Assembly (NCBI RefSeq): GCF_964194025.1
Contig: NC_134481.1
Location: 41,478,001-41,542,000, forward strand
DNA: 64,000 bases
From: Convolutriloba macropyga
Taxonomy: Eukaryota
Direction of reading: 5' to 3'
Both the position numbers and the translations under genes were made by a program. The notes beneath the pieces were generated by a model that saw nothing but the letters and a program-made list of their open reading frames with translations, was not told where the DNA came from and made no database searches. Numbering within the stretch: the first letter of the stretch is position 1; the number at the start of each line of letters is the position of its first letter. Positions 10,772 through 56,560 of the stretch are shown piece by piece.

Positions 10772-11068
10772 TACAACCCGCAAACACCGGACGAATTGCT
10801 CTCAAATGACTGGTGGGACATGATTCTATTGTAGATAGCTTCCACAATTTGGCCACAATTTTCCGTGGAATTTTAGTAGTAAACTCCCGACATTTTTTGA
10901 GCTCAGCTGCTTAAAATTGCGAATAAGAGAGCAATTTAGATCACGGAAAACTCACAAGTTCAAGGAACTAAAAGTCACTCGAAAATTCAAATTGGTCAAG
11001 CAATAATGCTACATAAAAAACACACGATACCAATAATTGCTGCAAAATTATTTCTGTCGAGAGCAATT
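10772..11068 (-). mobile_element. HINE-like element, second internal type
   Basis: GAATTGCTCTCAAATGAC ... TGTCGAGAGCAATT termini. The internal sequence is related to 3590-3930 and 15958-16387. Confidence 0.55.
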
Positions 11069-12884: not shown

Positions 12885-13373
12885 CAATGAGAAAGCTATC
12901 ACTCACCGGATCTTTTCCGCTTGTCCCCCCCCCCCCCCCCCTCAGTATGTTAGGCACCCCCAATTCCAGAGCACGTGTCATAACATTTAAATCATTATGT
13001 AAAAAATGGAACGTGCATCTGGGGGGTGCAAAAAATATTCACCCACTAAGCTGGCGGGCGGGCACAAACGGAAAAGATTCCATTTACTTTACCATTGTAC
13101 GTAAAAACTAACTTATGATACTTAATGTCACCTGAGACCCGCAAGTTCCTATCAACACATATTGGAACTCATTTCAGCAGAGAAAGACCACAATGGTCAC
13201 TATAGATCAATCCGATTCTGTTGTTCTCTGTTGATTACCATTGATTGCATACTCTCGCTGTTCTTTCTCCGGTGAAAGGTTCCAGTGTTTAAAGCAACTC
13301 ACGGGTCTTACGGTGACATTTAGTTTCACAAGTTAATTTTTGCGTACAATGGTAAATGATAGCTTTTTCATTG
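12885..13373. mobile_element. Long-TIR non-autonomous DNA transposon with nested MITE
   Basis: CAATGAGAAAGCTATC...ACCATTGTACGTAAAAACTAACTT... is mirrored by ...AAGTTAATTTTTGCGTACAATGGTAAATGATAGCTTTTTCATTG. Confidence 0.65.
12908..13080. mobile_element. MITE (GGATCTTTTCCG TIR family), nested copy
   Basis: TIRs GGATCTTTTCCG.TTGT / ACAAACGGAAAAGATTC and a decayed 8-bp TSD cactcacc/catttact. Confidence 0.75.
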
Positions 13374-15183
13374 AAATGCTGGTAAAACTATTAACAGTTA
13401 TATGTGCACAGAGTTTTTAAATCTGGTTGGTGATAAACAAATTTGGTGATAAATCCGGATGATAAATCTGGTTGGTGATAAATAAATTTTATTAAAAATT
13501 GCCAAAACACAAAATTGCCCGAACACTATAGTCAACGCGAAAATTGATCACCTTCAACTTTTGGGTAATGCTGAAAAATTAATTTCTCGGTAAATATTTC
13601 GAAAGGTTCAACATCTGAACCATAAAAGTCCAAAATGTTGAAATTCATGGAAATGTTCAGTCCTCGCCAAAATAGACGGTTTACAAATCATTTCATCTTC
13701 TGGCTTTTTTTCTTAGATGAAACCTTTACTAGCCAAAATCAGAGATTCACTGAATTATTCAATTTAGAGTAGCCTAAAGTCATCAAAACATTAGAGCTAC
13801 TTAGTGATTTAGACTGGTGATGTATCTTGGTTAATGGATCAGAACAAAATCATAATATTTTCAGCTGATTAACAACTTGATACATCAGAAGTCAGCAGTC
13901 CAATATAAAACTTGTTTAATCACAATCCCTGGCCGTTGTTTACGCCGTTGACATCATTTGCAACCTGCAAATGCTATTTAAAACACGCATGCAGATTGCC
14001 GGAACCATCGATTGCCATGGCCCCGATTGGGATAGAAACAAGAACAGTACCGCGCGCATTTAAAACTGGGCTTTATCAGTTTACTCCGTTTCTATATTTT
14101 TGATAGAAACGTTTTTTTGGTATTGACTCTGTTCATTTTAGATTGCTGGGACGCTGCTTTTCAGCAATTTGATCAGAATAACGAAGAATGAAACCAGCCC
14201 AGAGAAGTGAAATATTAAAGTCACGAAAAATGCCAAAAAAGCGGCAAAATTGGGTGACACTGAACAAACTTTTGTCCGACGAACTGATTAAAAAAATTTA
14301 GACCTGACTAACAGCCTCCTTAAAAAAACATTCGTTGATAGTCGACATATCATGTAACCTTACATACACGAAAACCTAAACACTAAAAATTGCAAGAGCC
14401 GAAATTTTGTACGATGTCTTTATAATTGGTCGATTCAAAGTCAATTAAAAAGCAATTGTTTATCAAAAAATCTTTGCCCAAGTCAAATTTCTCACTTTTG
14501 GAAAACATAACCCATCATTTATTAATCACTAAGGGACGAAATGATAAAAAATATAAATTGTAGGTAAGATTCAAAAATTGACAAAACAAGCAGTGCCGTT
14601 AAAAATACAAATCACTATGAACTGCAGCATCAAAACACATTAATTCTAGCCGAATGATAAAGGCATTGGTATCGGTTATGAACTACTCTAAGTGATAAGA
14701 CAAAACAAGATCATTGAATTGAAAAATATACTAAACAAAATAGTCTCAAAGTATTTAGCTATTTAGTAGATTTAGTTATTTATCAATAGCAAGCGAAGAA
14801 GGACGAAGAAAGAACTCAACAAAAAAAAACAATACGAGCAAAAGCCAAATTTTTGAAATAATTTCTTGAAAATAATCTCATAGTTGAAAAAAAGCTAAAA
14901 TTTATTGACTTTCACTTGCATCATTATGAGGCCAACTATGATAGTCATTAATGATATTAAGTAACAAAACAACAAAAAAAACTATGAGTACCAATTAACT
15001 AAAACTTTCCTATAAAATAATATAAAAAAACTATATGCCGATTTGGAAATACAAACAAAAGCAACTATGCACCTTTTAGAACACATACAATCTCAAAGAC
15101 AGCACCCCAATACAATCCATCTTTTGAATTGTAAATAATGGTAGCACAACAATAGCCGGTAGAGACGATGGACGGCGGTATTA

Positions 15184-15600
15184 AAACATAACCGACTAAA
15201 GTAGGGTGAATTGTTTTCGGCGTGCGGTTCACTTCGTCAGTAGCTACGCGCCATTTAGTGAGAGTAGCTTTAGCATAATTGAAGGGGCGTAAGTGAGCGC
15301 AGCGGGGGGGGGGGTGAACCGGGGATGATGGGGTGGCAACAGTGGGGGGGGGCAATCTCTAAGAACCGCCCTTCGCACCATTTGTATGTCTCCAAAACAG
15401 ATTCTGTGAATCGCATATTTGAAGACTAGTGAGCTTAAAGGCTCTATGAGCACTTAATGCCCGCTGGGCGCTACCTGTTAATCCTGTTTTTGAGGACACA
15501 AACTCAAATGTGTCAGACAAAAAATTGGTCAAGCGAAAAATCGCATTAAAAAGATCGACAGGACTAATATAATTGCTACAAATTTCGTTTGAGAGCAATT
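15184..15600 (-). mobile_element. HINE-like element
   Basis: AAACATAACCGACTAA end, shared core and TCGTTTGAGAGCAATT subTIR. Confidence 0.7.
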
Positions 15601-15957
15601 AAACAAAAACCAACTAAAGCCGGAAGAAATACTTTGGAACAACTGCCAGAGGAACAGCTCAGCCGTTGGGGTAGTATCCAGACAAAAGGTTTACTGGGGC
15701 TTCAAATGATATTATTAGAGCTTATACAGTTCAATAGTAAACATAACCGACTAACGTCGGAAGAATTGCTCTCGAACTACTGGTGGGTGCTAATCAATTG
15801 CAATCTGCTCCAGTCGGGGAGGGGGATGGGGTAGCCTAAATGGGACTAAAAATTCATTAGGGGGCTTCAACAGATCTCACTGAACAATCTCAAAAAAAAA
15901 GATAGCGCCCCAATACATTTCAAATTCTTTGAATTGTAAAAAAGGAGAGCGCCTAAA

Positions 15958-16387
15958 AAACATAACCGACTAACGCCGGAAGAATTGCTCTCAAATGACT
16001 AGTGGGACCTCTTATCAATTGCAACCTGCTTGTGTGTGTGTGTTTGTGTGGGGGTAGCCTAAATGCGACTAAGAAATTCTCTAGGGGACTTCAAATAACC
16101 TCATTAGAGGTTATTATTTTTAGAATGTTATTTTTAGAGGTTAATACTATTAAGATTTAAACTGAAAAAAATGACACCAATTTCAGCGCACTTATGATTG
16201 AACTTAGTATTAAATTGCCGCTAATTGAGTCCAGCTACTTGAAATTGCTTGCGATTAAGAGAATTTTAGCGGAAAACGCAGAGAGTCAACGGCGTAAAAG
16301 TCTCAAAAGAGTAAAAAAAAACGGTCAAGCGAAAATTTTGCAAAAAAAGACACGTTCACAATAATGGCTTCTCTTCTAGAGCAATTA
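15958..16387 (-). mobile_element. HINE-like element (a partial copy precedes it at ~15739-15950)
   Basis: AAACATAACCGACTAACGCCGGAAGAATTGCTCTCAAATGAC ... AGAGCAATT, with an internal GT microsatellite. Confidence 0.6.
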
Positions 16388-17167
16388 ATAATTAAAGAGA
16401 AAATAATGCTTACGTTGGCGAGTTTTTCATTTGATTTTCATTAAAAAAATAATAGTTCAATTACAAATTTATCATGTTATATTTTTAACAAGCAGCAGAA
16501 AATAAAAATTTACATGCAAACCCTCGTTTGACCTTGGTACGAAAGTGCACAATTCGAATATGAATTTTGAGCATAAACACAAGAAAAATGCTGCAATCTG
16601 ATCGCCATTCTAAATTATGTAACCTTGATTTTTCGTTCCTGCAACAAATGAATGAATAGGAGAAAACTTACCATAAACCAAAACTCCGTATTATACTGCT
16701 GACCTCACGTTCCTCTGATTTTAATTACCAAAATCATCCGACGACAATTTCTTCTTTCAACTCTTAGCTTTAAATTTTTCTATAATTTTTTTTCTATAAT
16801 TAGCTACTTCATTAAGCAATTTACTTAATAGCACAATGTGAAACCAAATACGTAAGAGACTTTAAACGTAAACACTTTAAACGTAAAAAATTTACATTAA
16901 ATTTGCAGTTTTTATTTAAATAAGCCACATTAGCTCTGTTGAAAGTAAAACTGAGAGCGATTTCTTGTCTAACACCACAGAATTGAGTTTTGCTTTCAGG
17001 ATTCAGTTAGGTTTGAGCTTGTTTAAACTGTAAACTGTTCAATTTGTCGAGACAAAAATAACCCAAACTAAAACTAATTTTTTACCTTATCGAAAATTCA
17101 ATGTATATTGTTGTAGTGGCTTTCGTCTACAAGCTTGCTTCGCGACGTATTTTCTAAAACTATGTAT

Positions 17168-17230
17168 AAACAGGGGGGCTCCGTAATGTGCAGTCGCGCA
17201 TAATGTTCGGACCCCGATCATCTACATTTA
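17168..17230. repeat. DINE-1-like repeat end, second family (related copy 22261-22322)
   Basis: AAACA(A)GG.GGCTC.GTA followed by a hairpin (perfect ATGTGCG-TT-CGCACAT in the 22261 copy), then AA.GTTC.GACCCCG.TCATCTAC in both copies. Confidence 0.45.
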
Positions 17231-19027
17231 GAGGGCTTATGAATCCGGCCATAAATAACATTTATAAGACATTTCAAATAAACATACTCTTACAAACAAA
17301 ATACACATCCTGAGCTACAAAGCAGATGGGACTTATCCACAATGGGACTGGCTAACCAGTCAACGGAAAGAAAAATGGGGGCGAAGATCAAAAATCCACC
17401 GAATTTTTTAAGCCAAATAATTTCAAAGGTCATAAAAACAATTACTAACTTAAAAATTCTAGACATAGTCAATAATAAGTCTTCAATAAACCACTGGGTG
17501 CCGTGACAAAATGTGATAAAAAATACTGAACGATAACAACAGATACAGAAAGAAAAATTTACAATTAACTGGCAAACATAAAGCCTTTAAAATTACGAGC
17601 TACTATCTTAATATTACGTATATTAACTCAATTATTATTTGTTTCGTTTCAGTCAACAAATAAATGAAAGATTGTATATGTTTACTTGCGTCTCATTTGA
17701 AAATCAAGGAAACTTGTTTTTTTAACACGAGTATTTTAAGACAACAAAAAACAAGAACATTGATCACTCACAAAATTTTAAGAAAATGTACACTGTCCAA
17801 GATATAGAACATCGGTTGCAACATAAAACCAACAGAGGGTTTTACATTTAAAGCAAAAGAAAGTGGATGGGACCTCTCATTGACGAGACTAAGTTTCAAG
17901 TTGACAGAAAGAACAAAGCTCGAAAAACTCTGAAAGTTACGAAAAAAATAAGATCAAAACCATTGGCTATCACTTGACGGCCTTGAATAATTTCATTACC
18001 TCCAGACAGAGAAGCAATTGAGATCTGTCATAAATCAGAAAATTTCGCACGACTACAAAAACAATTACAGGCAAAACAGCGAAAGAAACAATGCGAGAGA
18101 GAACCGTCGAAGTCATCAATGAAAAATGTCAATCGGTGGAAACTTTCGGATATGCTATACTATCTCAATTTGAAACCAACGAGATTTGTCATTAATGAGA
18201 CTAAGTCTTACGCCTACAAAAAAGCAAAACAAATACAGGGAAAAACCGAGCAGTCAAACAAAAAGTGCAAGAAGAAACTGTCAAAGCTTTTGAAAGCCAT
18301 AAAAACCAATTCGCTGATAAGTTTTTGTGCTCACCTAAGACTTTTTTAACGCCAATAGGAACTTTCATTATAGCAAAAACGTGACAAAATTTCAAAAACA
18401 ACCGAACTTTCGAAAAAATTAAAAATCAAAAAGAATAATGAAAACTAGTAGCGTCTAAGTCATAAAACCAATAGTTGTAGGACAAAAACCTCTGACCAGA
18501 CTGGCTTTCGATTCAATTTTAGGCGTACAGGGCCTGTCAAAAGTGTGACTGACCACCAGATTTACAAAAATGAGGAATTTTCAAAAAGTAATTTACAAAA
18601 AGCGGGTCAGGATTTTTTGAAAAAATTGTTTCAAAGTCTTAACAACCATTAGGTATGCATTCAAAGCAATAGATAGGTTAACCTAAACCTCTTTAGGAGA
18701 ACAGTTGCAGTTTGTCAACAAAATTAAGCCATAGGACAACAAAAAAGCAGAAAAAGCAGGCAAAACAAAAAAATCACAAAATTTAAAACAATTTTTGAAG
18801 CCATTTAAACCATGAGCGATGATTCCCGGAAACAAAACTGTTGTCCATTTCCATTGTGCCTCATTTGATCATAAATTGGTTTCGTTTATAAAAAGAACCT
18901 TGATGTAAAATTATTTGTCACTGAATGACATGAAAATCAAAAACTTCAATATAATTCGAGTCTTTCAGATTGTAAACTTCCGAATGGAAACCACGTCTTT
19001 TGATGGCTGCTCGTCATTTAGAAAAAA

Positions 19028-19509
19028 AATTGCTCTCTAACGACCGGTTGGCTATCACTAGCTTTAGCTTAACTGAAGGGGCGTAAGGTGATGAACGAGG
19101 GGGGGGGCTGATGGGGGGGGCAACAGAGGGGGGATGGTGGGAGGGTTTTTTGGTCTTACGGCCTGAAAGATGTGCAGGGGTGGGGATTAGGGGTGTGAAT
19201 TGAGAGGAGATTGATGTGGGGGGGGGGGGGGGTGTTGTGGTGGGGGAGGGGGGTGCGGTCAACCTATAAGAACCGCCCTTCGCACCATAAGTATAGGTCT
19301 CCAAAACAGTTTCTGTGAATCGCATACTTGGAGACTAGTGAGCTGAAAGGCTCTAAGAGCACTGAATGCCCGCTGTGTGCTACCTGTTTATCACGTTTTT
19401 GAGGACAAAAAGTCAAATGGGTCAGACGAAAATAGGCCAAGCAAAAAATCGCATAAAAAAGACCGACAAGACTAATATTATTGCTACAAACGTCGTTTGA
19501 GAGCCAATT
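19028..19509 (-). mobile_element. HINE-like element
   Basis: AATTGCTCTCTAACGA ... TCGTTTGAGAGCCAATT, a G-rich centre, and a core shared with the 15184 copy. Confidence 0.7.
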
Positions 19510-30711: not shown

Positions 30712-31332
30712 TGTAATATCCGGCCACTATGTACGGTTACGGGTTGGGCTGGGGATTTTTCTAAAGCACTTTAAAACCTCGGGGTTACTGATGCAAATCT
30801 TCTAAGTCTAAGACTAATTAATTATTAAGCTGTAAATATTAAAGCTGTTCAATATAGAGTTAGACTTATTGGTCGAAAATACAATAAGTTTCAAAAGGTT
30901 ACAAAGTGTAAAGCTAATAAGAGAAAGGCAGCCCAATTATATGAGGTTTAGTTTTGAATATGGTCTTTGCTTTCAGTCCTATCAATGGTTGAATATTCTT
31001 AGGTTATTTTTACCCATTTTCTGTAATCTCTTTGGGATTTTCTCAAAGTTATTTTCTACCGCACGGGTCCCTGTTAGTTAAACTAACAGATAACAGGTGT
31101 ACCTGCCTGACGAATCCCGTCAAGAACAAACATTTCTTGACGTCTCCCGTCAAGATGACATTCCGTGACGATTCCCATCATTATTTATGATGCTTTCTTT
31201 ATATTGTTAAAATCCGGTTTACTCTTAGTAACCATGTTTTTTTGTTCTCTCATTTATTGTGAAAATTTCGAATTGTGTGTTCACTATGTATTTTATGAGC
31301 ATCTCATACATTAAGTTCTATGGTTTACTACA
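30712..31332 (-). repeat. 3' LTR
   Basis: TGTAATATCC...TTTACTACA. Adjacent PPT CTAAGAGGGAGGCAG (minus strand, 31333-31347). Confidence 0.92.
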
Positions 31333-31384
31333 CTGCCTCCCTCTTAGAAAATGTGAGTGTTCCACTTACTCACAAGCAAGAGTT

Positions 31385-32238
31385 TCAAAGGTCCATTCTC
31401 GAGTTCATATATTCCTCTGCTTTTTCAATCCCGTGCCTGTCATAAATATTACGGGCCTCCTCATCTTCCATAATTTTCTTTGCCTGAAGAATAATTTTGA
31501 ACAGGTCCTCCCGACCACCCTTGTCCAGATGACAGAGCATTGCCATTTTTTTGAGATGTTTTTTGAAATGTTTCTGGATAGTACTCGTCGTGGCCCCTTG
31601 TGGCAGGAATAGAAGCTCATAAAAGTTCGGAGGTCGACTGAACGGTCTCTGCGCGTTGATCGCCTCCAGTCTCCTCTGGATGACCTTCGTTGAGGTCTGT
31701 TCTGTTCATATCCTAGTCCTTAGTTTTCTGATATCTATCTCAGCATTCTCCAAATCCCGAGCTAAACACTCCCGCTCATCCACCAGAGCGATACATTCTC
31801 TTGTCTTTGTTTCGGCTACATTCGTAACCTCCGCCAACTCTTTCTTCAATGTTTCCACCTGCCTCCTGCAGGACTCCCGCTGATTCCCAGCGTATTCAAG
31901 CAGTCGTTTGATCTCAAGCAATTGATCGCTTTACCTTTGACTTTCAAGTTTTAACTGCCGGAGCTCCTCTTCGGGCCGAGCCCGGCAGTTCCCAGCGTTT
32001 TGCTGTTGTCAATCTTTTTTTGCTGTTCCTCGATTCTCTGATGCATCCCATTTAAGTCCATAACACTAATTGCGGCTCTATCCACTATATTGGGTGGTTG
32101 CAGCTGCGTCAATTGCACCACGTATCTTTTATTTGAGGTTACTCCAACAATCTGATACACTTGGTGCCTGACTATCGACCTGACCTCGAACAACTCGGGT
32201 AGATAGTAGAAATAATTGCCGATTTTTGGTTCTGCCAT
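31385..32238 (-). pseudogene. Gypsy accessory ORF4: coiled coil plus C-terminal DnaJ J-domain
   Basis: After one frameshift and two stops: ...NFYELLFLPQGATTSTIQKHFKKHLKKMAMLCHLDKGGREDLFKIILQAKKIMEDEEARNIYDRHG (31430-31627). Confidence 0.8.
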
Positions 32239-32328
32239 TCCTACATATCATACATTTAAATTAATCTAATGTGTCGATCTCAATTTCTGTCATATCTGGT
32301 ACAGATTTAGCCTTTTTTGCTGTTATAA

Positions 32329-34274
32329 CTACAATGTCTGTATTACCATCACACAGTTCAACTGTTCTTTTCTGGTCAATTTTTGTTCCTTAGTACGTTG
32401 TTTTAGATGATGAAAATAACCCAGTTCCCCCCTTGGGTTAATGGGTTGCAGAGCCATCACAGGATTGGTGCCACTGCGTAGCATATCGATTAAAAAAACA
32501 CACGTACCAAACAAAATACCATTTTTAATCCAATAAAAATAGTCATCAAACTGATCGTTATTTCTCTGGCCACACGCCAGACTTGTTTCACTTCATTACC
32601 CAGGTATTCAAAACTCAGCAATTCATGCCACTGGTGATTGTACTTCCAGTCCGTGTTGAAATACTCTAGAGTCTCATGCTCATATAAACCTCCTTGTCCC
32701 AGGAAAACGTCTCGTCCTGTAATCGTTTTTCTCGAATGCCTTAACCTTTGGGCCCTCTTGCTGAGTTCAAGGTCTTTGTCATTGAAAAACCCTTCCATTG
32801 GCGCGGAGGTTGGCCAATTGACGTTAACTCTGTAATTAGGCATATCATTGGGTTTATCAATCAGTTATATTCGTCTGCCATATGTTATCCATGACCCATT
32901 CTGCAGTTCAAGAGCGTTCGGGTACATGGGGTTGCAATTAATCAGAGGGAAATTTCTATAGAATACTCTATAAAAAGGGTCCATGTATCTAATTCCTTCT
33001 GAACTATTGTCAGAAGATACCCTAATTGGTACTTCCTCGGTACAAAACTGGTTTTCTACAACATGTACGATAACTTTAGCGCACCTATGGACATAAAGTA
33101 TTCCTCCCTCTCTTTTTGCGTGTGTACCCAGAGCGTTTTGTTGATTTAGGAAAAGTTGATGTGAGTTTCCGTTAATTGGTGTCGTTAAAATCATAGCTCT
33201 GTGCTGTGTTTCTATGTGACAAATTAATAACTCTATTTGTTTCAGATTTTCAAACATGCCTCGAAAATCCCACACAAAAAGTTGGTCGAGTTTTATTTCC
33301 CTGAGATCTGTTGGTGAAAAATTTTGTTCGGTGGCCGTCAACGTTTCCTTTGTGTAAAACAAATTTCTGCGGTTTGTTTCAAAAAGCTGAAAATGGTCTA
33401 TCTGTTTTGTCCTGTTTTTCAACTGAACAACTAAATTTTTTATTCTGTCCAATGTGCTCGTCAAGTACTTTTTATTCCCAGCGCGGACTGTTTTTGCTGT
33501 TATCGATCCTGAAAATTTAACTATCGTTAAGATATTTAGTTTTTTTTGTCTTGATCGGAAAAATAATTTACTGAATCTGTTTCAAATGTGTCTCCTTGAT
33601 ATAACAAGGTCTGCTCCTGTTTCAGAGGGTCTTTAAAATATAACCATGTTCCTTCATTCGCTTCTCTAGTGTCAATGAACAAAGTCCCCATGAAAATTTA
33701 TCATGATTACAAGAAATTATCTGTGTTTCACCTTTTGGATTGATCCACTCCACGGGGTAGACATAATTCACTCCTTTTTCATCTCCGCCTTTCATGAATG
33801 TTTTTGATACCTTCTGAGCAAACTCTGCGTCGGTTCTGTCAACATTCATCTCATTAAGGACTTCTTTAGGAGCATTGAATTCAAAGTCACCAAGAGCCGA
33901 TAACCGCGCTCTGTGTCCCTGCCATAGGTTTTGGCAGACTGATTCTTTTATTGGGTAAAACGTTGGAATTATTTTTGATTTTTCGTTTAAGTAAGTTGCG
34001 TCGTCATACCAAACACTTTTTTTTCAGCACAGTTACCGTATATGCAGCCCTGTACATGCAGTTTTTTTAGTTTAGTCCTGCTGCTCCTGGCGTAGATGCG
34101 TCCTCCTTTATTTACCTGCTCCTCGTTTATGAGTGACGTTTCGCATTTTGTCCGTTCCGTCATGGCAAATTTTTGCGTCTGCAGAATGTTCTCAAAATCA
34201 TACCCCACAATCTCCAAAGATTGTGATAAACCTACTATGCTAACCAATTGGAGAAATTTCCAGTTCAGCTGCAC
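32329..34274 (-). pseudogene. env: env-like glycoprotein (chuvirus/herpes gB-like class III fusogen), frameshifted
   Basis: Signal peptide and IVGYD, then EGGILYVHRCAKVIV..CTEEVPI..YMDPFYRV..CNPMYP..NGSW, GFFNDKDL, and a C-terminal hydrophobic TM segment. Confidence 0.75.
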
Positions 34275-34381
34275 GTTCCAATGTGGGTTCCATGCCCTCT
34301 GCCTGTTGTCGTATCACCTTTTTTTTAAAAAAATACATCATTATCAAACTTTTCATCTGAATCGTCATCCTTGAATAAAAA

Positions 34382-37300
34382 TTAGGCTTTGAGTTTCCGT
34401 GGTCTTGTTTTTCCCGACGCACTTCTTGTTTGATATCGTCGTTCGGTAACATTTTGCGAAGTAGAAGCCGTGCTTCTATTTGAAAATTCTTCGCCTTCAC
34501 TCGTTTCGGACGTTGCCACCAGGCTATCCCGCTTCTGCTGTGTGGCTACTTTAGGAGCAGGTATCTTTGTGCTTCTGCTTTTGTTGTTTGTGTTAGTATT
34601 TATTGATTCTCTTGTACTCCCACCCATTGGTGTTTCAATCAATTCCTCCTTGACTGTCTCCTTGTGAGCTTCAGTACTATGGTTAATTTGACTATTATTC
34701 TCTTCAGAATTCACTTCTCTTCTTCCTGTGTCATTCAATTTTGGAGTGACCACCTCAATTTCCACGAAATCATTGTCCTCCGTAAGGTCATTTTGGGATA
34801 TTCTCGGTTCACTATTTGCCTTCTTAGGTTCTTTTTTATCAGTGGCAGCACTTCTACTGTTAAAACGTTTGAGTCGATCGCAGTGGATTTTTTGTCGTTT
34901 TTTCGTTTTCACATCCTCAATAACAAAGTTTACATCGTTGATTATTTCACGTATTACTTGAGGTACCCTGTAAAATGATTTAAATTTCTTTGTCCGGACA
35001 GTTTTCATTGTGGGGTTGAACACCATTACTAAATCACCTACTTCATATTGTGGTCCAAATGTTCTACGGTCATAGTAGGTTTTCTGTCTTTCTTGCTCCA
35101 CATCCATGCTTTCCCGAACCAGTTCATGGCACATCTGTAAATCTTCTTTCAAGCAACCAACGTAATCACTCAAGGTTTGGTAGATTTTGGTTTGTATTGT
35201 TTGATAAATGCAATCAATCGGTAGCGCGCATGATCGTCCAAAAAGGAGGTAAAAGGGGCTGTACTTGGTAACAGAATGAATTGATGATCTGTACGCCATC
35301 ATTACTAGCGGAAGATAGTCGCTCCAGGTTTTGTGATGTTCACCCACATATTTTGCAAAACTCTCTTTGATTGTGCGATTGGTGCTCTCTATCATTGCGT
35401 TTCCTTGAGGATGATAAGCTGTTGTTGATGTCCTGTTAATTCCCAGCTCTTTACACATACTCTTGAAAAGATTCGAAATGAAGTTACTGCCCTTTTTGCT
35501 ATGGAGAGTTGCCGGACAACCAAACCTTGAAACCCATACGTTTACAAAAGCCTTAGCTACCGTTGAAGCTTCTTGGTTGCTCATGGGAATTGCTTCACAC
35601 CATTTTGTAAACTGATCTCCAATTAACAGATTGTATTTGTTTCCACTTGACGCAGGTAAAGGTCCCATAATGTCCAAAGCGACTTGCCAAAACGGATGAC
35701 TTGGTTTCTACGTTGTCAGGCTGTGTAAGTGTTTCTGGTGTGGAGACTTCTTTTGACAGCATACTTCGCAAGAACTTACCCACTCGCGAACATCTTTTTT
35801 CATCCCGGGCCAGTAGAATATTTCTCGAACCCGATCAAATGTCTTGACCGTATCAAAATGTCCGCATTGTTTATGAAGGAAAGGTAGAATTTTTTTATAA
35901 GTGATCTCTGAATGACTATTTGTGTTAAGTTGTTAATTTCTTCAATACGTTTCTGTCTCTTGATCAGATCATTTTCAATTTGTAAGTTTCTGAAATCAGT
36001 CCAAGTTTTCCACAGGGCTCTAGAGGCTCCTGCCATGTTTTTTCGTTGAGGGCGTCTCCCGTTCTCAATCCAGTTTCTTAGTATAATGAGGTCGGCTGCA
36101 TTTTTTCGATGTTCAATTAGTTGTTCAACAGATTTCCCTAGTCCAATGGATCAGATGTTTTTGTCTTCCGTATTTACTTGGTTCGCTTGATCGTAGTTTT
36201 TGACTTATTTTTCTGTCTGTGAAACTTTCGACAGACAGTCAGCGTGAGGGATCTTTTTTCCTGCTTTGTGTTTGATTTCAAAATCAAACTGTCCGAGCTT
36301 TTCTATCCATCTGGCCAATAATCCGTCTGGTTCCTTAAAACTATATAACCAGGTGAGGGCCTTATGGTCGGTAATAATTACAAACTTTTGTCCCAGAAGA
36401 TATTTTTTGAAGTGTTAAGTGAAATAAACTATTGCAAAAAGTTCTCGTTTTGTCGCAGAATAGTTTCGTTGACTTTTGCTGAGCGTTTTGCTTGCGTATG
36501 CAATAACTCTTTCACCCCATTGTTGTCTTTGGGAAATAATTGCGCCAATGCCAAACAGAGAGGCGTCGGTGGTTAACGTATAAAGATCCGTGTCATTCGG
36601 ATAACCCAATATTGGCGCTTTTTATAATGCTTGTTATAGTTGTTCAACTGCTGGTTCACACTCTTTGATCCAAAAAAAAACGTTCCTTTGTTTAATAGCT
36701 TATAAAACGGCTCTGCTATTTTTCCAAAATCTTGTATGAATCTTCTGTAAAAACCAAATAGTCCTAATATTGCTCTCAATTCCTTTAATGTTCGTGGACT
36801 TTTCATTTTACTGACTACCGCTACTTTCTCCGGATCCACTTCTACGCCTTGATTTGATACAATGTGTCCCAGGAAATGAATTTTTTCCTAAAAAATTCTA
36901 CATTTTGAGCCTATGATTTTCAATCCAGCGTCTTTAAGTCGTCCAATAACGAGATCTAGACGGTTGAGATGCTCCTCAAAGGATCTACCGAAGATGATTA
37001 TGTCATCCAGGTATACTAAAGCCGCTTCATAAGAGAGTCCCGCCATGATCAATTCCATTAAATTGTGGAATGCTCATAGCGCTGACGCCAAACCCATGGG
37101 TAGTCTCTTCCACTTGTAGATTCCCATTGGAGTTACAAAAGCTGTCACGTTCTGGGACTCTTCATCCAGCGCCATTTGAAAATATCCCGATGTCAAATCG
37201 ATATTGGAAGAATAATAATTTCCGTCTAGAGAGTCAATAACGTCATTTATTCTTGGTAGCGGCCAACTGGTTATCTCGATTTGTTTGTTCAAGCCTCTGT

Positions 37301-38298
37301 AATCTACAACTAGTCTGTAGCTGCCATCTTTCTTTTTCACCAATATTGATGGTGCTGCCCAATACGAATGGGTTGGTTCAATTAATTTTGCTTCCTCTAG
37401 TTCTTCGACAATTTTTTTCATTGCTTTTCTTTTATCAAAACCCATACTGCAATAACCTCTTCTGAATGGCTGTGCATATTTGTTGAGTTCAATTTGGTGT
37501 TTAATTTTGTCACAATATCCTAAGTCATTCGAGTTTCGGGAGAAACCTTGTTGATGTCTCATGAACAATTCCTGTACTTTCTTTTTCTGCTGCTTTTGTA
37601 GATTAGAACCTTCCAAATTTGCGTGTTTTCCTATTTGAAAAGTTTTCAATGTTTTTGGCTTATTTTGATCTGTGAAAATTCCATTCACAGCTAAGTTCTG
37701 TTTGTTTTCAAAATAAGTTCCTACTTTAGTGCTTTTATACACGGTCACTGGTGCGTCCGTTAGATTTAAGACTTTTATCCTACTAGAACCATCTTTCATT
37801 GATATCATACAGGCGGCTAAAAGCAAACCAGTCTTTAGTTCAAAATCTTTCATAGCTTCAACTAATCCTTCCACTCCCGGAATTTCTTCTCCGTTTTCAT
37901 CAGCTGATCTAATTCTCATTAGACTTTCGTTTTTACTCTGTATATAAGTGTTTTGTCCCGCAACTGCAAAAACCTGAACACCTTGCGTTTTCTCTGTGGT
38001 AAGCGGTATTGAAATTTTAAAGTGACTGCTATATAGTTTCTCTTCGCGTAAGTTCAATACATATTTGTTGGTTTTCAGGAAATTAATTCTCAGCAGACAT
38101 TCTATACCTTCGTCTGCCGTTATCACAAATTCTTGTTCAACCTCCGGTATTCATGGTTGCAACTGTACCATCAGCTTCACTCTTCTTATTATTTTGACAG
38201 CTGAGTTATTGGCTGTTTACACTCGTTTTGTGTATGTTTGCACAATTCCCGGTTTGCCCAGTTTTTCGTATGTGGACCAACTCAAAAGCAATATAAAC
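34382..38298 (-). pseudogene. pol: Gypsy pol (partial PR, RT, RNase H, integrase)
   Basis: WAAPSILVKKKDGSYRLVVDYRGLN, DLTSGYFQ, LVYLDDIIIFG (~37010), TTDASLFGIGA..YSATKRELFA, DIMGPLP..YHPQGNAMIE. Confidence 0.95.
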
Positions 38299-38978
38299 CT
38301 TTGGTTTCGACGGTTCTCTCGCTGTTTGTCATCTACTGACAATTGGTTCACAAGCCTGGTGACGGCCTCTACTAAATCTTTCGTTTCATCCCGTCTAATT
38401 ACCGCAACTTTTGTTGTTTGCTCTTCCTCTTCTATTCTTGTTACAGCTTCTAGATGCAATGCTCGTTCCAAAACTGTTTCAAAACTCATATCCTTGTCGC
38501 CGATTTGCTTTCTGAGATCTAACCTCACCTGACTATGGTTGATTCCTTCTAGAAATCCTCTCAGAACGAGATGGTCTCTAATGTCCTGCAACTCCGTTGG
38601 GTAAGCTTCCAAAGCCAACTGCTTTAAATCTACCAGAAAATCTGTCAGTTTTTCTCCTGGTTGCTGTACGCGGCCAGCTAGCCGTCCCCGGAAAACGACC
38701 GGTTTTTCACTACAGTGTTCTCAAAAAGCTTTAATAAATTCATCATAGTTTTCTCTTGTAGCTTGCGGTAGAGTGCGATAGAACTCTATGGCAGATTTTT
38801 GTAGCCTAAGTGCAAAGTAATGCGGCCGTTCATCAACTTCGCGGGCCGGATCTCCTTCAGTTCGTTTCCACTTTTGTAGTTCCGCTAATAGCTCAAAATG
38901 CTTCACGTAGCTCTCCAATTCGTTTGAACCAGTAAATGCTTCCGGTAATAGCATTCTAGAGGTCGAGCCCGTTGCCAA
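38298..38978 (-). pseudogene. gag: Gypsy gag (one internal stop; 3' end and protease DTG motif deleted)
   Basis: PEAFTGSNELESYVKHFE...RVQQPGEKLTDFLVDLKQLALEAYP...FLEGI. Confidence 0.85.
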
Positions 38979-39969
38979 TTTACTGTTCCCCTACTTGTAT
39001 CGTGCCCTTTTAAAACTTTGTTTAGTTGTTGAAAATTAGTTTCTATAAAATAATTACCAAGTAGATCGTGACTGGTAGGTGTTTTCTAATTTTATCTTTG
39101 AATTTCTATAACACTCTCTTTATTTTAATGTTTAACAACTTTTGTTTATAAAACCTAACGCTTATTTCAATATGGTATTTTCTTTTTTTTTATTATTTTT
39201 TCTTCTTAATTTTTAACAAAATTTAAATTTACAGTTTTATAGATGACTGTCCCACCCAAATTCTGTTTATTATTTTAATATGATACTAGCTGAATTCCGC
39301 TTTTTTCCTGTTTTATTGATGTTTATTATATATATATTTTTTTCTAATTACGACAAGGATGATATTAGGTGCTTTAATTTTCTTTTACTTTCTCTTGCTT
39401 ATTGTTACCTGATCAACTTTTTTTTTGCTTTTTTGTTTTTTCTAATTAAAGGTAGTTTCAGAAAAAGTCAATATATAATTTTCAGAGTACAAAACAACGC
39501 AATTGCTTTAATTGATTTTACAACGCAAATATCCTGCAGTTTTTTTTTTCTGATGGTTATGCCACTCGTTATCTACAACTCAAAAAACAAATTTTCCCTA
39601 GACTAACAAGACTAACGCAGTGGCGATCAATTTTGATTACCAATGACAACAACTAGAGAAAACACTTTATTTGTACTCACTTGGTATGATGCAGTCTTTC
39701 CACACAAGCAATTTTCTCTCTTCACCAACGAGTAATAGTTAGCCCCACGTGAGTAAATTCTCACTTGCGATTGATTCCGTTGCGACTTCTGCAACTGATT
39801 CCCACAAACTTTGGTGGAAATAGGTGGAACTGGTGATTTGTTATCCCAAATCTTGTGTTTTCTCGAGATAGGGGTCTCGGTGTTAAAGTGCTTTTTATTT
39901 GCGTCTTCCTACCGGCAATTTTGTTAAAGTTTTCAAAATATTAACTTTTTTTAAAATCTCTGTCGCCAG

Positions 39970-40583
39970 TGTAATATCCGTGCACGGTTACGGTTTGGGT
40001 TGGAGATTTTTCTAGAGCACTTTAAAACCTCGGGTTTACTGATGAAAATCTTCTAAGTCTAAGACTTATTAATTATGAAGCTGTAAATATTAAAGCTGTT
40101 CAATATAGAGTTAGACTTATTGGTCGAAAATACAATAAGTTTCAATAGGTTAAAAAGTGTAAAGCTAATAAGAGAAAGGCAGCTCAATTATATGAGGTTT
40201 AGTTTTGAATATGGTCTTTGGTTTTAGTCCTATCAATGGTTGATTAATCTTAGGTTATTTTTACTCATTTTCTTTAATCTCTTTGGGATTTTTTCAAAGT
40301 TATTTTCTACCGCACGGGTCCCTGTTAGTTAAACTAACAGATAACAGGTGTACCTGCCTGACGAATCCCGTCAAGAACAAACATTTCTTGACGTCTCCCG
40401 TCAAGATGACATTCCGTGACGATTCCCATCATTATTTATGATGCTTTCTTTATATTGTTAAAATCCGGTTTACTCTTAGTAACCATCTTTTTTTGTTCTC
40501 CCATTTATTGTGAAAATTTCGAATTGTGTGTTCACTATGTATTTTATGAGCTTGTCATACATTAATTTCTATGGTTTACTAAA
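39970..40583 (-). repeat. 5' LTR
   Basis: Direct repeat of 30712-31332 with scattered substitutions. PBS-like TGGCGACAGAG at 39958-39968 (minus strand). Confidence 0.92.
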
Positions 40584-41871: not shown

Positions 41872-43238
41872 GTGAGCTTTCGCGATGAGCGAAATTCTAC
41901 CACAACCACGGCTCAGATACATTCTCAGGCACAACTGCTTAAAACCATTCCTAAACTATGTAAAATCTTCAAATAAACTATTAAACTGTTAATTTCGATT
42001 AAATTTTTTGAAAAATTAATATTAATGATATCATTGCGGATTTTTTAAAGTTCCCAACTCCCAAAAACGAAGTTTTTTTCAGAACAAGCGGTGCACAGCT
42101 TTCAGCTTAAGCTCTTAAGGAAAGAAAAAGGTCGTGCGGAACAAAGCCGAAGGCCGTAGATTGTTCGAGAAAAAACTTGGGGAAGATAGAAGCATTCTCA
42201 GGAAAGAGGTGAACTTTTACCTTCAATTGTGTACAGCATTAGAAAAGAAATGAGAGACCAATCCGAATTGATTAGTAGGAGACCTATGACAAGTAAGCGA
42301 AGCTGTCTGAGAAACAAGACAGGCCTTTGCGGAATGGATCTCATAATAATGTTGTTACACTGGACGGTGTTAAACTGCCCTGATAGTGAAAAAGTATTGT
42401 GAAAAAGAATTGTCTGCCAAATGGTACGCCAAGAATGTACGTGAGACACCAATGGATAGAGGAGTTACAAAAATAAATGATTTTTGAAAATTCAAAAACT
42501 AGTACTGTACCATTTGATAAAGGTTGCGGTTTTTGTGTCGTGGAACAGCCAACATACTCGGATAATCTGAATGAAATCCACAGTTCCAGTCAGTTTGAGC
42601 CTCGTAATGGAAAAAGTGATGATCGAAAAATCGAAACGGAAAAACTGATAAATAGAAGTTTGCTCCAATTAATAAACAGGGAAAATAAGTGAAAAGATTT
42701 ATCAAAGACTCAGGACAACTGGATTGCAACCGGCCAGGCCTTATGGACTTGCTAAAGTACATAAAAGCGGTATTCCGTTTTGTCAGTAACTGGTAGCAGT
42801 TATGAGAACCTCAAAACATATCTCTCTCCCTTTTTCTACAGGTTAGCAGGTGCAAATATTGAGACTAACTCAAAAGATGCCAGAACCGCTCTAGAGGCCA
42901 TCAAATTGCATAAAGATGAGCTAGTTGTATCTCTCGATGTTAAAAGTTTATACACAAATGTAGCGGTTGAGAAGGCAATTGAAACTACGTTTAAAGAACT
43001 GTACTCCAGTGACGAGATACATGAGATTCCGAGGCCAGCGATGAATAGCCTTTTGAAACAAGCCGTAACTAATGTTCACTTCAAGTGTAATAAAATGTGG
43101 TACACTCAATTGGACGGTTTAGCAATGGGTGCTTCGCTTGCTGTACTTTTGGAAAATTTGTGGATGAAATCGTTTGAAAAATCCTTACAGAAACAAAATG
43201 AGAGAAGGCAGAACAAAACTTCTGACACAAAGTTGATA

Positions 43239-43385
43239 TGAATTGACTGTAACCAAAGCGTGACTTTCCGAGGGAAAGGGGTCGAGTGCGAATCATTCAA
43301 AAACTGGTTTCATGCAAAATGCCAAGATATCACTGACACAGAGCATAAGACTATGCAGGACATTGTTTGAATTTGTTCCTATTGT
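43239..43385 (+). other. PHD finger in frame inside the PLE RT domain
   Basis: *IDC..VECESFKNWFHAKC..V*ICSYC (TGA/TTC/TGA at the expected C/C/W positions), 17 codons before YADD. Confidence 0.8.
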
Positions 43386-45257: not shown

Positions 45258-45954
45258 CCCAGGTTTTGGTCCAGACCCAAATTGAGCTACGATCAGACCC
45301 AATCGATCGCACAGCCCTGTGTTCCCAGACCGAAATTACAGGGTCTGGAAAGCGGTTCGAGCGCACAATAGTCTGGACAATGGTCTGATTTCGGTCTGAT
45401 CAGAGGTCAATTCGGTCTGGACGGTCTGATCATAGTCTTTATAGTCTGGACCATGGTCTGGGTTCGGTCTGATCAGAGGTCAATTCGGTCTGGAAGGTCT
45501 GATCACAGACTTTATAGTCTGGACCATGGTCTGGGTTCGGTCTGATCAGAGGTCAATTCGGTCTGGAAGGTCTAATTTCTAGTGCATTATTTTTTCAATT
45601 TTTAGTTTTTTTATTGAGGGATGTTGGCTCTGCCAAGAGGCAACAATAAAGCAGCGTCTGGGCAATGGTCTGAAATTGAGTCTGGACCATGGTTTGAAGA
45701 TGGTCTGATCATAGTCTGTTTATAGTCTGGACAATGGTCTGAATTTGAGTCTGATCATAAGCGCACTATAGTCTGGACAGTGGTCTGGGTTCGGTCTGAT
45801 CAGAGGACATTTTGGCCTGGAAAGTCTGATCAGAGATCATTTTGGTCTGGAAGGTCTGATCAGAGGTAACTTCGGTCTGGAAAGTCTGATCAGAGGTCAT
45901 TTCAGTCTGCATAGTCTGATCATAGCTCAATTTGGGTCTGGACCTAAACCTGGG
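45258..45954. mobile_element. Non-autonomous TIR element (CACTA/EnSpm-like) with internal GGTCTG repeats
   Basis: ~40-bp TIR CCCAGGTTT.GGTCCAGACCCAAATTGAGCTA.GATCAGAC and a 2-bp TSD AT. Confidence 0.8.
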
Positions 45955-46076
45955 ATGTTATCGCCTAATTTGAGAATAGCTTCATTCTAATAGATATCAG
46001 AACTTAATAAATTCACTGAGCTATAAAGCTTTTAGATAGAAAAAAATGAATTTGTTTCTAAAACTCTATGCGTTTA

Positions 46077-47798
46077 CCCAGGATGAAGTCCGCGACCCAA
46101 GACAGGTATTGACCAGACCGACCATACCCAAAACAGACATTGGCCAGACCGACAATACCCAAAGATAGGTATTGGCCAGACCGAACAGACTTTGGACACC
46201 AATGGCCAGACTGACTGGCCATTGTCCAGACCATTGGGCAGACCGAACAGACCCTAGGCCAGACCGTTGTCCAGACCATCGGCCAGACCGTTGTCCAGAC
46301 CAATGGCCAGACCGAACAGACCTTAGGCCAGACCATTCTCCAGACCGTAGGCCAGACCGTTGTCCAGACCATTGGCCAGACTGAGCAGACAGGACAGACC
46401 GTTCCCAAGTCGAGGTGTGCGTTAATGATCAGACCCATCCAGACAAAAATTGGTCATGATCAGACCCATCGAGACGATAATCTGCCATGATTAGACTTTA
46501 GATCGTTTTTCATACGTGATCGTTTTTAACTCGTATGTTTGTGACCCCTTCGCCCATTAGTCTTAGCTATTTAGGGTCTTTGTTTTTTTCTTTGGCGGCT
46601 CTAAAGTCAGGTGCGCTCCTTATGGAGCCGAGTAATGCTCTTCAAAGTAGCGAAAAAGGCCCATGAAAAAGCTAAGACATGTTTACTGCTGCAAAAATCT
46701 GAACAGTTCCTCTGATCTGACACAAGTGCACTCGAATCGTCCTCGGTCGGTTAGATCTGGCCACTGGCCTGGCCTAAGGTCGATTCGGTCTGGCCCGAAT
46801 TCTGGGCAAAGTCTGTATGGTTTGGCCAATACCCATCTTTTGGTCTGCCCGTTCAGGCAAGACCAACATATGGGTATTGGCCACACCAAACAGACAAAAA
46901 ATTGGTATTGGGCAGACCGAGCAGACAGAAAAATGGTACTGGCCAGACCGAACAGACCGAAATATTGGTCTTGGCCAGACCAAACAGACCGAAATATGGG
47001 TATTGGCCAGACCGAACAGACCCAAATATGGGTATTGGCCAGACCGAACAGACCGAAGTTTGGGTATTGGCCAGACCGAACAGGCCGAAATTTGGGTGTT
47101 GGCCAGACCGAACAGACCGAAATATGGGTATTCGCCAGACCGAACAGACCGAAATCGGGGTATTAGCCAGACCGAACATACCGAAATATGGGTATTGGCC
47201 AGACCGAACAGACCGAGATATTGGTCTTGGCCAGACCGAATAGACCAAAATATGGGTATTGGCCAGACCGAACAGACCGAAATATGGGTATTGGCCAGAC
47301 CTAACAGACCAAAATATGGGTATTGGCCGGACCGAACAGACCGAAATTTTGGTATTGGCCAGACCGACCAGGCCGAAATTTGGGTGTTGGCCGGACCAAA
47401 CAGACCGAAATTTGGGTATTGGCCAGACCGACCAGGCCAAAATTTGGGTGTTGGCCAGACCAAACAGACCGAAATATGGGTATTGGCCGGACCGAACAGA
47501 CCGAAATTTGGGTATTGGCCAGACCGACCAGGCCGAAATTTGGGTGTTGGCCAGACCAAACAGACCGAAATATGGGTATTGGCCAGACCGAACAGACCGA
47601 AATATGGGTATTGGCCAGACCGAACAGACCGAAATATGGGTATTCGCCAGACCGAACAGACCAAAATTGCCATTGGCCAGACGGAAGGCGCAACCCAAAT
47701 TTTTTCCAGACCATTGTGGACGGTCTTACCGGCTCTCCTGTCCGCGACCCAAGTCGGTCTGGCCAATACCTGTCTTGGGCCGCGGACTTCATCCTGGA
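46077..47798. mobile_element. Non-autonomous TIR element (CCCAG end) carrying a minisatellite
   Basis: TIR CCCAGGATGAAGTCCGCG.CCCAAGACAGGTATTG.CCAGACCGAC at both ends. Confidence 0.85.
46870..47680. repeat. 32-bp tandem array (~25 copies)
   Basis: Unit GGTATTGGCCAGACCGAACAGACCGAAATATG. It explains the 32-aa-periodic ORFs on both strands. Confidence 0.95.
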
Positions 47799-47829
47799 AA
47801 CATTGACGCTGTTATCAAAGAATAAAAAA

Positions 47830-50800
47830 AATAATGTTTGGCAATTGCAAAAAAACTATTTCAGTAAAAGTAACAAAGAAAAACTAGAAAACATTCTATT
47901 TCTCTATTATTCAAATGTTCACAATAAAACTGAACTTAACAAGAATTGTTCAAAAAGCTGCTACTATTTTTATTGACTATGTGTTTTCGGATTGCAGCAA
48001 ACCTTTTAATTTGACACGCCTTGTTATGAGACCATTTAGAAGAAGTGTCCATATAAGAAGACAATATCAGATCATTCAGTTTTCCTGAGCAAAAATGGAC
48101 ATATCACCTATATTTTAAAACAAATAAATTTCAGACAAGCTCTTCTTAATACTTGCGGGGCAGAAAATTACCGATGAAAAACTAAAATTTAACGTTTTTT
48201 AACTTTTTTCAAGCCTTTGAATTACACTCACCGAGACAAAATTTTGATAAAAATTAAAATTCAAGAACCATATCTCAATATATCGAGAAATTTTTTGAAA
48301 ACTAAAAACCAAGAACTAGAAAACAATTTTAATTTCCGTCTAAAAGAAGGTGAACATTTAGCCTTTAGAAAATTCAAGGAAAAGATAGGCCACATGTCAA
48401 ATGTTAATTTTAAAGAATTCTTTAAATCTTTACTTTCTTTATTCAAAAAGTGCAGAGAATGTTAAATAAAATTAGTGGAGTAATTATATCAGCGGAAAAA
48501 GACCAAATTAAACACTCTGAAAGATTGAGAATTTTTTGAAAACTAAAACCCAAGACCTAGATACCAGATGGATTTTCCTTCTAAGAGAAAGTGAACATCT
48601 AGCCTTCAAAATTTGTCCAACGCTGATTCCAACGAGTTCATTATTTTTCAATTCTGTATGTGCAATAAGTGCGAAGAAATTTGAATTTAATTGATGAAAT
48701 TCGTAGTTCAGCGAAAAAAGACAAAAATAGAGACTCCGAAACATCGAGAAGATTTTTAAAAACTAAAATCCAAAAACTAAAAAAACCGATGCATTTTCTT
48801 TCTGAAAGAAAGTAAACATTTAGCCCAAAAAATTTGAGGGAAAAAATAGGCCAATTGTCCAACACTCAACTTAACGAATTCTTTGGTTCCTTACTCTCAT
48901 TATCCGAAAAGTGCAGATAATTTTAAATTTGGATAAAGAAACCCGTAACTCAGTGGAAAAAGAAAACCAATGAAACACTCTGAAAAAGTTTATGTAGACA
49001 TCGTAACTGAGCCCAATAAATGCCAACGGGTAAAATTATTGATTCCAGCAATTGAGTAAAATTAATAATTTAAGTCGAAAATAGACTGAGACTCTCACAA
49101 TCAGGGGAAATGTCTCTAATATGGAATTAATCTTCTATTCATCCCTGTTTGTAATCAACGTGTGTTTTTATAGGTCTTTTTTCCAGTAATTCTGAAGACT
49201 GCGTATGTTTCCGCATATTAAAGATGAAATGATTTAGAGGAACTTGAAAATAATAGCCAAATATCAAGTATCCCTTGGGTATCTAATGTCAATGAGATTT
49301 TAGTAAAACGGCAAATAGATGAGTTCCAGAACAAATATGGGTTACTGAGTAGAAGACAATGTGGTTTCAGTAAAAAAGCTCAAAATATGATGCCTTAGTA
49401 TCCGCAACTAAATTTTAGGATACTAATCTGAAAAAAAAAATTTGCTTCAGCTGCGTTCAGGGATTTATCTTTAATTTTTGGTTTTTTGAATCATAAAATT
49501 TTATAAGCAACAATTGCAAAATTGGATTTTATGAAAATTTTTTTATTAATCTATGATAGTTTCTTTTCATTAAGCAGGCAATAGATACCAGCAAATTACA
49601 CTGAGTTCAAAGGAATTATATTTGCGGGCGGGTATCTCCAAGGTACGACAAGTTGACTCTAATTGTCTTTTTTATTTCGTATTGCACTGAATAAATCAAT
49701 CTTTTTGATTTTTTTGTTAGTTGAGCAAGCCAGTTAATTTGAATAGTTTTTAGATCAATCAATTTTTTGTTCAGTTTTTAGTGATATCATAATCTTCATT
49801 CAATTGAGATTCATTTTGTCTATGGTTTGAATGTTCATATTAAAACTGAACTTACCAATGTTTTCATAAAGGGTACTACTCTTTTTGGCTATGCATTGTC
49901 GGATTGCGGTTTTCAGCAAACTTTTATTGTGACACTCCTTGTTAAGAAACTATTTTGCAGAAGTATCCATTTTAAAAGATATCATTAGATCAAGCAACTT
50001 CGTTGAGCTCAAATAGATTTATTAACCATCTTTTAACAACAAATTTTCAAAGACGAGCTAATATTAATATTTGATGTGCAGAAATCTACAAATAAAAAAT
50101 TACTATATAAAGCTTAACTAATTTTTCATTTTTTTCAAGACTCTAAAAAAGATAATCCAAGATAAATTTCTCTAAAAAAGATAATCCAAGAATCATATCT
50201 CACAAGATCGAATATTTTTATGAAAGTTTTAACCCAAGAACTAGAAACCAAATGCAATTTCTGTCTAAAAGAGGTCTGTTTGCATTCAAAATTTTTCAGA
50301 ACAAATTAAGCAAATTTTCCATCACTGATTTTTACGAATACTTTAATTTTTTACTCCCTTTATCCAACAAGTGCAGATAATGTTGAATTCATTTAATAAA
50401 ATCCGTAATTCCGCAAAAAAAGAGACAAGAAAAAACACCCTGGAAAATGTTTTTGAAGACATTGTAACTGAGCCCAAAGAATTTAAACCCAATAATATAC
50501 TGATTCCCGCAATTAAGTAATCTCAACAATATAAATAGTTGAAATCAATTGAGACCCTCAAATCTGGGAAAAATTTCTCCAATATAATTTTAATCTTCAA
50601 TTCGTCACTGAGCTAAAATGTAGCTTTAAAATATATGCATCTGAATATTTGAAGGGGCGTCACTTATTTCTCCATGATCTTTGAAGGACGATGGATCAAC
50701 CGTCAGCAAGTATCTTAGCTTTATAATAAACGAGCGCATTTTTTGTAATGAGCGATAGGTCAGTTTTTCAAAAAGCTCTCAAGTCTCCTTATGTTTCACC

Positions 50801-56301: not shown

Positions 56302-56560
56302 TGTTGAATCAATTTGAAGATAAAATGGTTTTGAGTTCGAGATAAACCAAACCTTCAACCCTCTAAAAATAACCAACGTCCTGATTGGTTGAATTTGAAA
56401 ACATGTTCAAAACGAAATTTCTAGGGACAAAGTTTCTTTCCAATCAGTTAACTAAAGGATTACACAAGAGTGAATAATACCATTGTCCAATGTTCACAGC
56501 CCCATTAATTAAATTAGGAGATGGATGAAGCTTTAGAAACAACATTTTTTTATCCCGTAA

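Follow-up and report, generated by a model that had tools for sequence, protein, structure and literature searches.

We analysed a 64,000 nt stretch of the Convolutriloba macropyga genome (assembly GCF_964194025.1, contig NC_134481.1, positions 41,478,001 to 41,542,000, forward strand), hereafter called the window. The window harbors a Gypsy element of 9.9 kb on the minus strand at 30712-40583, a decayed copy with gag-pol, env and two long terminal repeats (LTRs). After the env stop (32261) and before the polypurine tract we found an accessory open reading frame (ORF), with its ATG at 32238 and its stop codon at 31385-31387, that encodes a J-domain. In brief, this accessory gene is a lineage-wide, selected J-domain gene of env-bearing Gypsy elements.

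The region 31388-31705 (minus strand) matches PF00226 over the whole profile (1-63 of 63, E 8.6e-9, 35.8 bits; gathering cut-off 27.8 bits), which confirms the J-domain pattern reported in a preliminary description of the locus. That description read the ORF through a coiled coil into the J-domain, but the window copy is interrupted by a frameshift near 31981-31993 and by in-frame stops at 31931-31933 and 31706-31708. It also placed the gene as a fourth ORF between env and the 3' LTR, inside the boundary set by the polypurine tract. The position is correct. The number is not, since the ORF is the third in family A, to which the window copy belongs, because gag and pol form one frame there, and the fourth in a second family, B. 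At the J-domain motif the window copy reads HLD and carries a four-residue insertion (KHLK), as described earlier.

Family A copies were collected by a DNA search of the genome that gave 530 candidates, of which 40 were scored (all match) and 30 loci were fetched. Among the 29 copies besides the window copy, 23 read HPD, two HPE, and one each HLD, LPD, HSD and NQD; all 29 show a four-residue gap relative to the window copy. HLD and the insertion are therefore decay of individual copies and not features of the family, which has an intact HPD in most members. Sequence of env lies directly upstream in 28 of the 29 copies and the 3' LTR downstream in 28. Another 20 family A copies were picked because their ORF is open or nearly so; upstream, every one of them matches env and gag-pol, in some cases only in part. 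Contig depth over the accessory ORF, in four runs of one study, is about that over pol and env, depth here not being copy number.

Family B was found by a PF00226 search of the genome (910 candidates, 150 scored) and a third family, C, by a profile search. The gene follows pol and env sequence in all six fetched family B copies, four of which have LTR pairs that are 98-100% alike. In family C, an env homolog lies upstream in 6/6 fetched copies and gag-pol matches are present in 5/6. The reverse transcriptase (RT) of family A is 80% identical to that of family B and 79-80% to that of family C. The accessory proteins of the three families share about 30-45% identity, and their env proteins 27-38%. 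Heads (39-46%) and J-domains (33-36%) are better conserved between families than the rod that joins them (21-33%), and HPD is kept in all three. Presence beyond the window copy, on which the preliminary description made its proposal depend, thus extends to the 29 sister loci, the 20 further copies and families B and C. With the same slot occupied in families B and C, the accessory gene is older than family A.

Selection was assessed by counting codon changes per column, either shared by at least three copies, and thus passed on by replication, or private to one copy. Set 1 comprised 25 copies, at least 23 of them picked for an open or nearly open ORF, and set 2 comprised 30 copies picked by likeness to the window alone and not for open frames. 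In set 1, the ratio of nonsynonymous to synonymous change (dN/dS) of the accessory ORF was 0.17 for shared changes (43.5 synonymous, 25.5 nonsynonymous) and 1.03 for private changes (Fisher p 1e-10). Shared changes gave 0.18 for env and 0.04 for RT, and private changes gave 0.88-1.03 across genes. In set 2, the accessory ORF gave 0.22 for shared and 0.92 for private changes (p 3.8e-10), env gave 0.28 for shared changes, and shifted-frame controls gave 1.2 and 2.0. Taken separately, the head and the rod are both significant in set 1 and in set 2. The accessory ORF is under purifying selection of a strength like that on env, and private changes are neutral. A dN/dS below 1 across copies, named as a check in the preliminary description, was thus found in both sets, and neutral evolution was not.

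Outside this genome, a profile search was run over 1.84 billion representative proteins. Six of the best 150 matches listed (P0122, P0125, P0126, P0135, P0137 and P0201, from Logan or ENA contigs) are less than 45% identical to families A and B and align over head, rod and J-domain. All six of these full or near-full homologs have HPD, which is thereby retained across proteins 26-43% identical, and five pass the PF00226 cut-off, P0201 being below it. A search with P0122 against the genome had best matches of 34-50% identity; three loci were fetched, all of them family B sites. The six homologs are likely to be element-borne and to come from other hosts. Contigs of the P0126 cluster reach 9.3 kb, and that of P0137 is 10.1 kb long. 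Scans of JGI found no DNA context for the outside homologs, IMG/VR gave none for P0257 or P0135, and an alignment scan for their DNA returned 11 loci, all matching the J region only. Neither a protein query at 1e-40 nor a pattern found P0282 in the genome. All of the 118 proteins from a word-index search are 51-97% identical to family A. The ESM Atlas gave no usable match, and PHROGs gave only J-region families of unknown function and one weak coiled-coil match. At the start of P0137 are translated repeats with the string TGFVRQ, which the family A LTR encodes as well.

In a J-domain tree of 68 rows and 78 columns, with a bootstrap not fully settled, 13 element-type J-domains and P0223 fall on one side of a branch with 100/99 support. 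On the opposite side are 39 library J-domains and 15 host J-domains from 18 loci, the host having more. P0223 was labelled a library row and reads as element-type. The element J-domains therefore group apart from the sampled host J-domains. This fits one old acquisition of the J-domain by the element lineage, with the caveat that long branches may attract each other.

The AlphaFold model of P0122, built on a 16-row alignment, has a mean predicted local distance difference test score (pLDDT) of 91. It has four to five strands (residues 1-48, with pLDDT 88-95 over residues 1-40), a helix at 56-136 and a J-domain that matches solved J-domains, for example Sis1 (6d6x, E 9e-5). The long helix appears in both the family A and P0122 models. 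The preliminary description lacked a folded N-terminal domain; this head is now predicted to be an SH3-like barrel, matching such barrels at Z 7.5-8.4 and a root mean square deviation of 1.0-1.8 over 45-48 residues. Tied among the fold matches are the Hpy99I N-domain, a PWWP complex with single-stranded DNA, Spt5 KOW, KIN, TDRD3 Tudor and SMN Tudor. Nucleic-acid binders are thus among the closest folds (PWWP with single-stranded DNA, 6kco, Z 8.2; Spt5 KOW, 5ohq, Z 7.9; KIN, 9coj, Z 7.8). No Pfam Tudor or PWWP match was obtained for the accessory proteins tested. An origin of the head from the integrase C-terminal domain was considered and found unsupported (HHalign probability 0.12, score 8.3 against a shuffled mean of 9.6, from shallow alignments).

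The accessory protein is predicted to be a coiled-coil dimer. A two-copy P0122 model scored 0.41 against 0.01 for the best control, with pLDDT 76 and runs agreeing in at least 68% of contacts, and its interface is a parallel heptad over residues 55-133. In calibration, the dimer mark was reached by 21/30 solved pairs and 0/23 single chains from microbes, 17/29 pairs from eukaryotes and 7/16 pairs from animals. No hydrophobic segment was found in 8/8 proteins tested (maximum 19-residue hydropathy 0.49-1.02), so the protein should be cytosolic or nuclear.

The features of the element are listed in Table 1. Paired LTRs, a primer-binding-site-like motif and a polypurine tract are all present, as expected of an LTR retrotransposon. 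The domain order of pol is protease-RT-RNase H-integrase (Pfam, families A and B), and the Integrase_p58_C and RT_RNaseH matches fit Ty3/Gypsy. In the window copy, the gag-pol region is interrupted by frameshifts and stops and has lost about 400 bp through a deletion. In open copies, env matches PF24664 with E 2.3e-14 and 5.5e-11, and the match is above the cut-off in open copies of families A and B. Three copies were examined for a target-site duplication; one has 4 bp, one a near match and the window copy none. In all three families a short inverted repeat is found between the end of the accessory ORF and the polypurine tract (window 31353-31373; loci L064 and L107), with a GAGTG motif in common. 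Each LTR of the window copy has two CTTGA/TCAAG palindromes (31117-31156 and the 5' counterpart), and five stand in tandem just ahead of the family B gene at L064:8034-8196.

Table 1. Features of the Gypsy element in the window, from 5' LTR to 3' LTR
Feature	Position	Strand	Basis or remark
5' LTR	39970..40583	-	588/619 identical to 3' LTR
Primer-binding-site-like TGG motif, directly after 5' LTR	39955..39968	-	Same motif in families B and C
gag-protease-RT-RNase H-integrase region, ends approximate	34325..38978	-	RVT_1 and rve matches, translation, comparison with other copies
env, chuvirus/gB (class III) type, broken, start approximate	32261..34304	-	PF24664, E 2.4e-6
Putative splice-acceptor-like site before accessory ORF	32241..32246	-	In-phase AG at a shared place, to within one codon, in all three families
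Accessory ORF, broken in window copy; 280 aa in open copies	31385..32238	-	Sequence, translation, copy comparison
Predicted N-terminal SH3-like barrel (Tudor/PWWP/KOW type), about 48 aa	32095..32238	-	AlphaFold model of homolog P0122
Coiled coil, predicted to form a parallel dimer, ends approximate	31640..32075	-	Long helix in family A and P0122 models; two-copy P0122 model
J-domain; motif position 31523-31531, HLD in window copy	31439..31627	-	PF00226; copy census
Polypurine tract	31333..31345	-	Sequence; families B and C have a similar tract that ends in GGCAG
3' LTR (TG...CA)	30712..31332	-	Sequence

The accessory ORF is probably expressed from a spliced message. The string ATGTAG/GA directly precedes its ATG in the window copy, and an AG in the same reading phase stands before the gene in each family (TAG/GA ATG in A, CAG/GC in B, TTTAG/AG in C). 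In family B, nine of the ten copies open in this part have the conserved first strand ahead of their first in-frame ATG. Translation in this family must therefore start upstream, which would be most simply achieved by a spliced exon. None of 15 listed contig joints (253 more unlisted; four runs of one study, with contigs that look like DNA) ends at the acceptor, and a degenerate-pattern search for copies with different sequence before the ATG returned zero. A scan for splice donors gave several candidates, none of them convincingly shared. One of 30 loci (L019:913-2805) has only a primer site and the accessory gene between its LTRs. We rejected it as a spliced retro-copy with the LTR joined to the gene; it is a deletion copy, because the acceptor sequence is still there.

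Other arrangements of these genes were found in the genome. Tandem arrays of an approximately 1.8 kb unit of env end and accessory gene, and of other element parts, occur at L025 (C10, approximately 58.954-58.970 Mb) and L066. A family A copy at L024/L037 (C1, approximately 22.62 Mb) stops some 1 kb short of an unrelated host DnaJ gene, probably by chance. In two other env-bearing families, different post-env ORFs of at least 284 and at least 449 aa (L116:2846-3697 and L122:2723-4069) are conserved across copies and have no Pfam match. Elsewhere in the window, the minus strand of 52024-63498 carries an 886-aa frame with an endonuclease VII domain, together with zinc-finger and other ORFs. Further motifs of the 886-aa frame are presumably those of protein-primed family B DNA polymerases, and the region looks to be an element of Polinton/Maverick type; no PDB match was obtained. 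Dispersed repeats with 3.3-3.4 kb duplications, and satellites with units of 12, 32 and 73 bp, occupy 1200-19500 and 45300-47900, and an RT fragment lies at 42765-43241.

Based on these observations, we suggest with good confidence that the accessory ORF is a gene for a soluble dimeric J-domain adaptor, long held by one env-bearing Ty3/Gypsy lineage. Two SH3-like heads would bind a specific client, the coiled-coil rod would space them, and the two C-terminal J-domains would recruit host Hsp70 and switch it on at the client. Recruitment of Hsp70 follows from established J-domain biology and the retained HPD, and stimulation of Hsp70 by the protein would be expected. We further propose, tentatively and with slightly less than even confidence, that the client is the element's own nucleoprotein. 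This may be the Gag-RNA particle or the complex of reverse transcription or integration, whose assembly or disassembly Hsp70 would assist. In favor of this reading, the gene accompanies nearly all copies sampled, within a replication-competent layout.

Several points weigh against this proposal. The models are those of the homolog P0122, and the head of the family A model, built on a shallow alignment, reaches a pLDDT of only 34-44. Tudor domains tie as matches to the head (Z 7.5-7.6), a fold shows no function, and a Z near 8 can reflect a common arrangement. The dimer result may be memory of coiled coils, as only one of seven eukaryotic pairs without an older relative passed. Purifying selection on the J-domain alone had a p value of 0.005 in one set and of only 0.07 in the 30-copy set. 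Two other env-bearing families in the genome hold unrelated ORFs in the post-env slot and gave no match to the accessory profile in the 30 loci examined; in the one where RT is visible, it is 30% identical to that of family A. The gene is thus not needed by env-bearing elements generally, and the post-env slot in this host seems to be a site for accessory genes.

A chromatin client is possible, though clearly less probable than the element's own nucleoprotein. Here, Tudor/PWWP-like heads would read DNA or histone marks at the element's own loci, and the Hsp70 recruited there would strip repressors off or remodel them, with an anti-silencing or transactivating effect. The predicted head matches PWWP and Tudor folds, J-domain proteins and Hsp70 recruited to chromatin are described as regulating Arabidopsis transposons (SILENZIO; available parts of PMC8616336), and T antigen acts on pRB by combining a J-domain with a targeting motif (available parts of PMC11720896). 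However, LxCxE is absent from families A, B and C, and the aromatic cage of methyl readers appears only partial, as judged by eye. Palindromes with CTTGA arms are found in the family A LTR, and five stand before the family B gene, but they are absent from both family C copies scanned.

Rather improbable in our view is a cytoplasmic counter-defence, in which the protein would draw Hsp70 away from the small-RNA machinery of the host (loading of Argonaute/Piwi, or Tudor-scaffolded granules) or direct it there. The predicted head is Tudor-like, the gene diverges between families as fast as env, and a host J-protein of C. elegans links Hsp70 to one specific Argonaute (available parts of PMC11194074); against this, the two copy sets give no sign of positive selection within family A. 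That a lineage in several animal hosts encodes a new class of J-protein, a Tudor/PWWP-like reader-rod-J, which would turn Hsp70 against transposon silencing, is a wider proposition that we consider doubtful.

The broken window copy might suggest a passenger, either a captured host DnaJ fragment without element function or a protein kept for a role other than with Hsp70. Purifying selection in both copy sets largely refutes this, HPD is kept across the diverged homologs, and the well-supported branch sets the element J-domains apart from host and library J-domains, so that such a passenger is very unlikely. A chaperone for env folding, raised in the preliminary description, is the least probable of all despite the position of the gene directly behind env in all three families, because the env ectodomain folds in the lumen of the endoplasmic reticulum and the accessory protein has no signal peptide or membrane segment, although an unknown upstream exon could add a signal.

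Little is known of the accessory genes that invertebrate retrovirus-like elements carry, and for chaperones retroelements are generally taken to rely on the host rather than to encode their own. Literature searches showed no established Gypsy J-domain accessory gene, in agreement with the preliminary description; subscription journals, Repbase, Dfam, GyDB and bioRxiv supplements were outside their scope. The head-rod-J build appears to be unreported for a retrotransposon in the literature covered. The adaptor we propose is small and soluble, and the question of its client is therefore directly testable. The gene may also serve as a marker by which to trace this lineage through other animals.

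Gypsy elements with a gB-type env, the 'ancient errantiviruses' with HSV/gB-type env, are widespread (Chary and Hayashi, PMC13524379). As far as that account is available, they share with the element described here the LTR-gag-pol-env-LTR layout, the protease-RT-RNase H-integrase order, a class III-type env and many near-identical copies, whereas our element has an extra conserved gene after env. The terms DnaJ, Hsp40 and chaperone are absent from the available portions of its text and supplementary files. For additional ORFs of LTR retrotransposons, the messages are typically spliced (PMC5408684, in part). Bdelloid ORF3 (GDSL, DEDDy, coiled-coil or TM), treated in the same portions of PMC5408684, is likewise a captured non-core gene before the 3' LTR, but it replaces env, whereas the gene here is additional to env and encodes a J-domain. 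No J-domain is among the extra ORFs in the available parts of PMC5408684 and PMC6338049.

Among J-domain proteins, the accessory protein is placed by PF00226, the predicted J fold and, at family level, HPD after a basic helix II (HLD in the window copy). The layout of class A and B DnaJ proteins, with an N-terminal J-domain, G/F region and substrate-binding part, is not found, the J-domain here being C-terminal after barrel and coiled coil. Class C J-domain proteins and the DnaJ proteins of giant viruses and phages have the same canonical J fold (BFVD matches in phages and Mimiviridae), and the nearest library proteins also have a short HPDxGG loop. Their matches cover the J-domain only, and none has SH3-like head, rod and J-domain. 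The SH3-like barrel of Tudor/PWWP methyl readers is predicted in the P0122 model only.

Virus-encoded J-domains are known, for example in polyomavirus T antigen (PMC11720896, in part). The likeness of HPDKGG to T antigen, pointed out earlier, is not specific, as relatives of the accessory protein read HPDAGG, HPDQGG and HPDKRG and ordinary cellular DnaJ proteins also have HPDKGG; no T antigen is among the fold matches listed. According to the parts of PMC11720896 available, T antigen belongs to a DNA virus and not a retroelement, its J-domain is N-terminal and not C-terminal as here, and its LxCxE, origin-binding and helicase domains are absent from the accessory protein. Both nevertheless couple an HPD J-domain to a targeting part. 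A selected, element-encoded J-domain adaptor would point to a step of replication or silencing evasion that needs Hsp70 aimed at one target, in parallel with polyomavirus T antigen.
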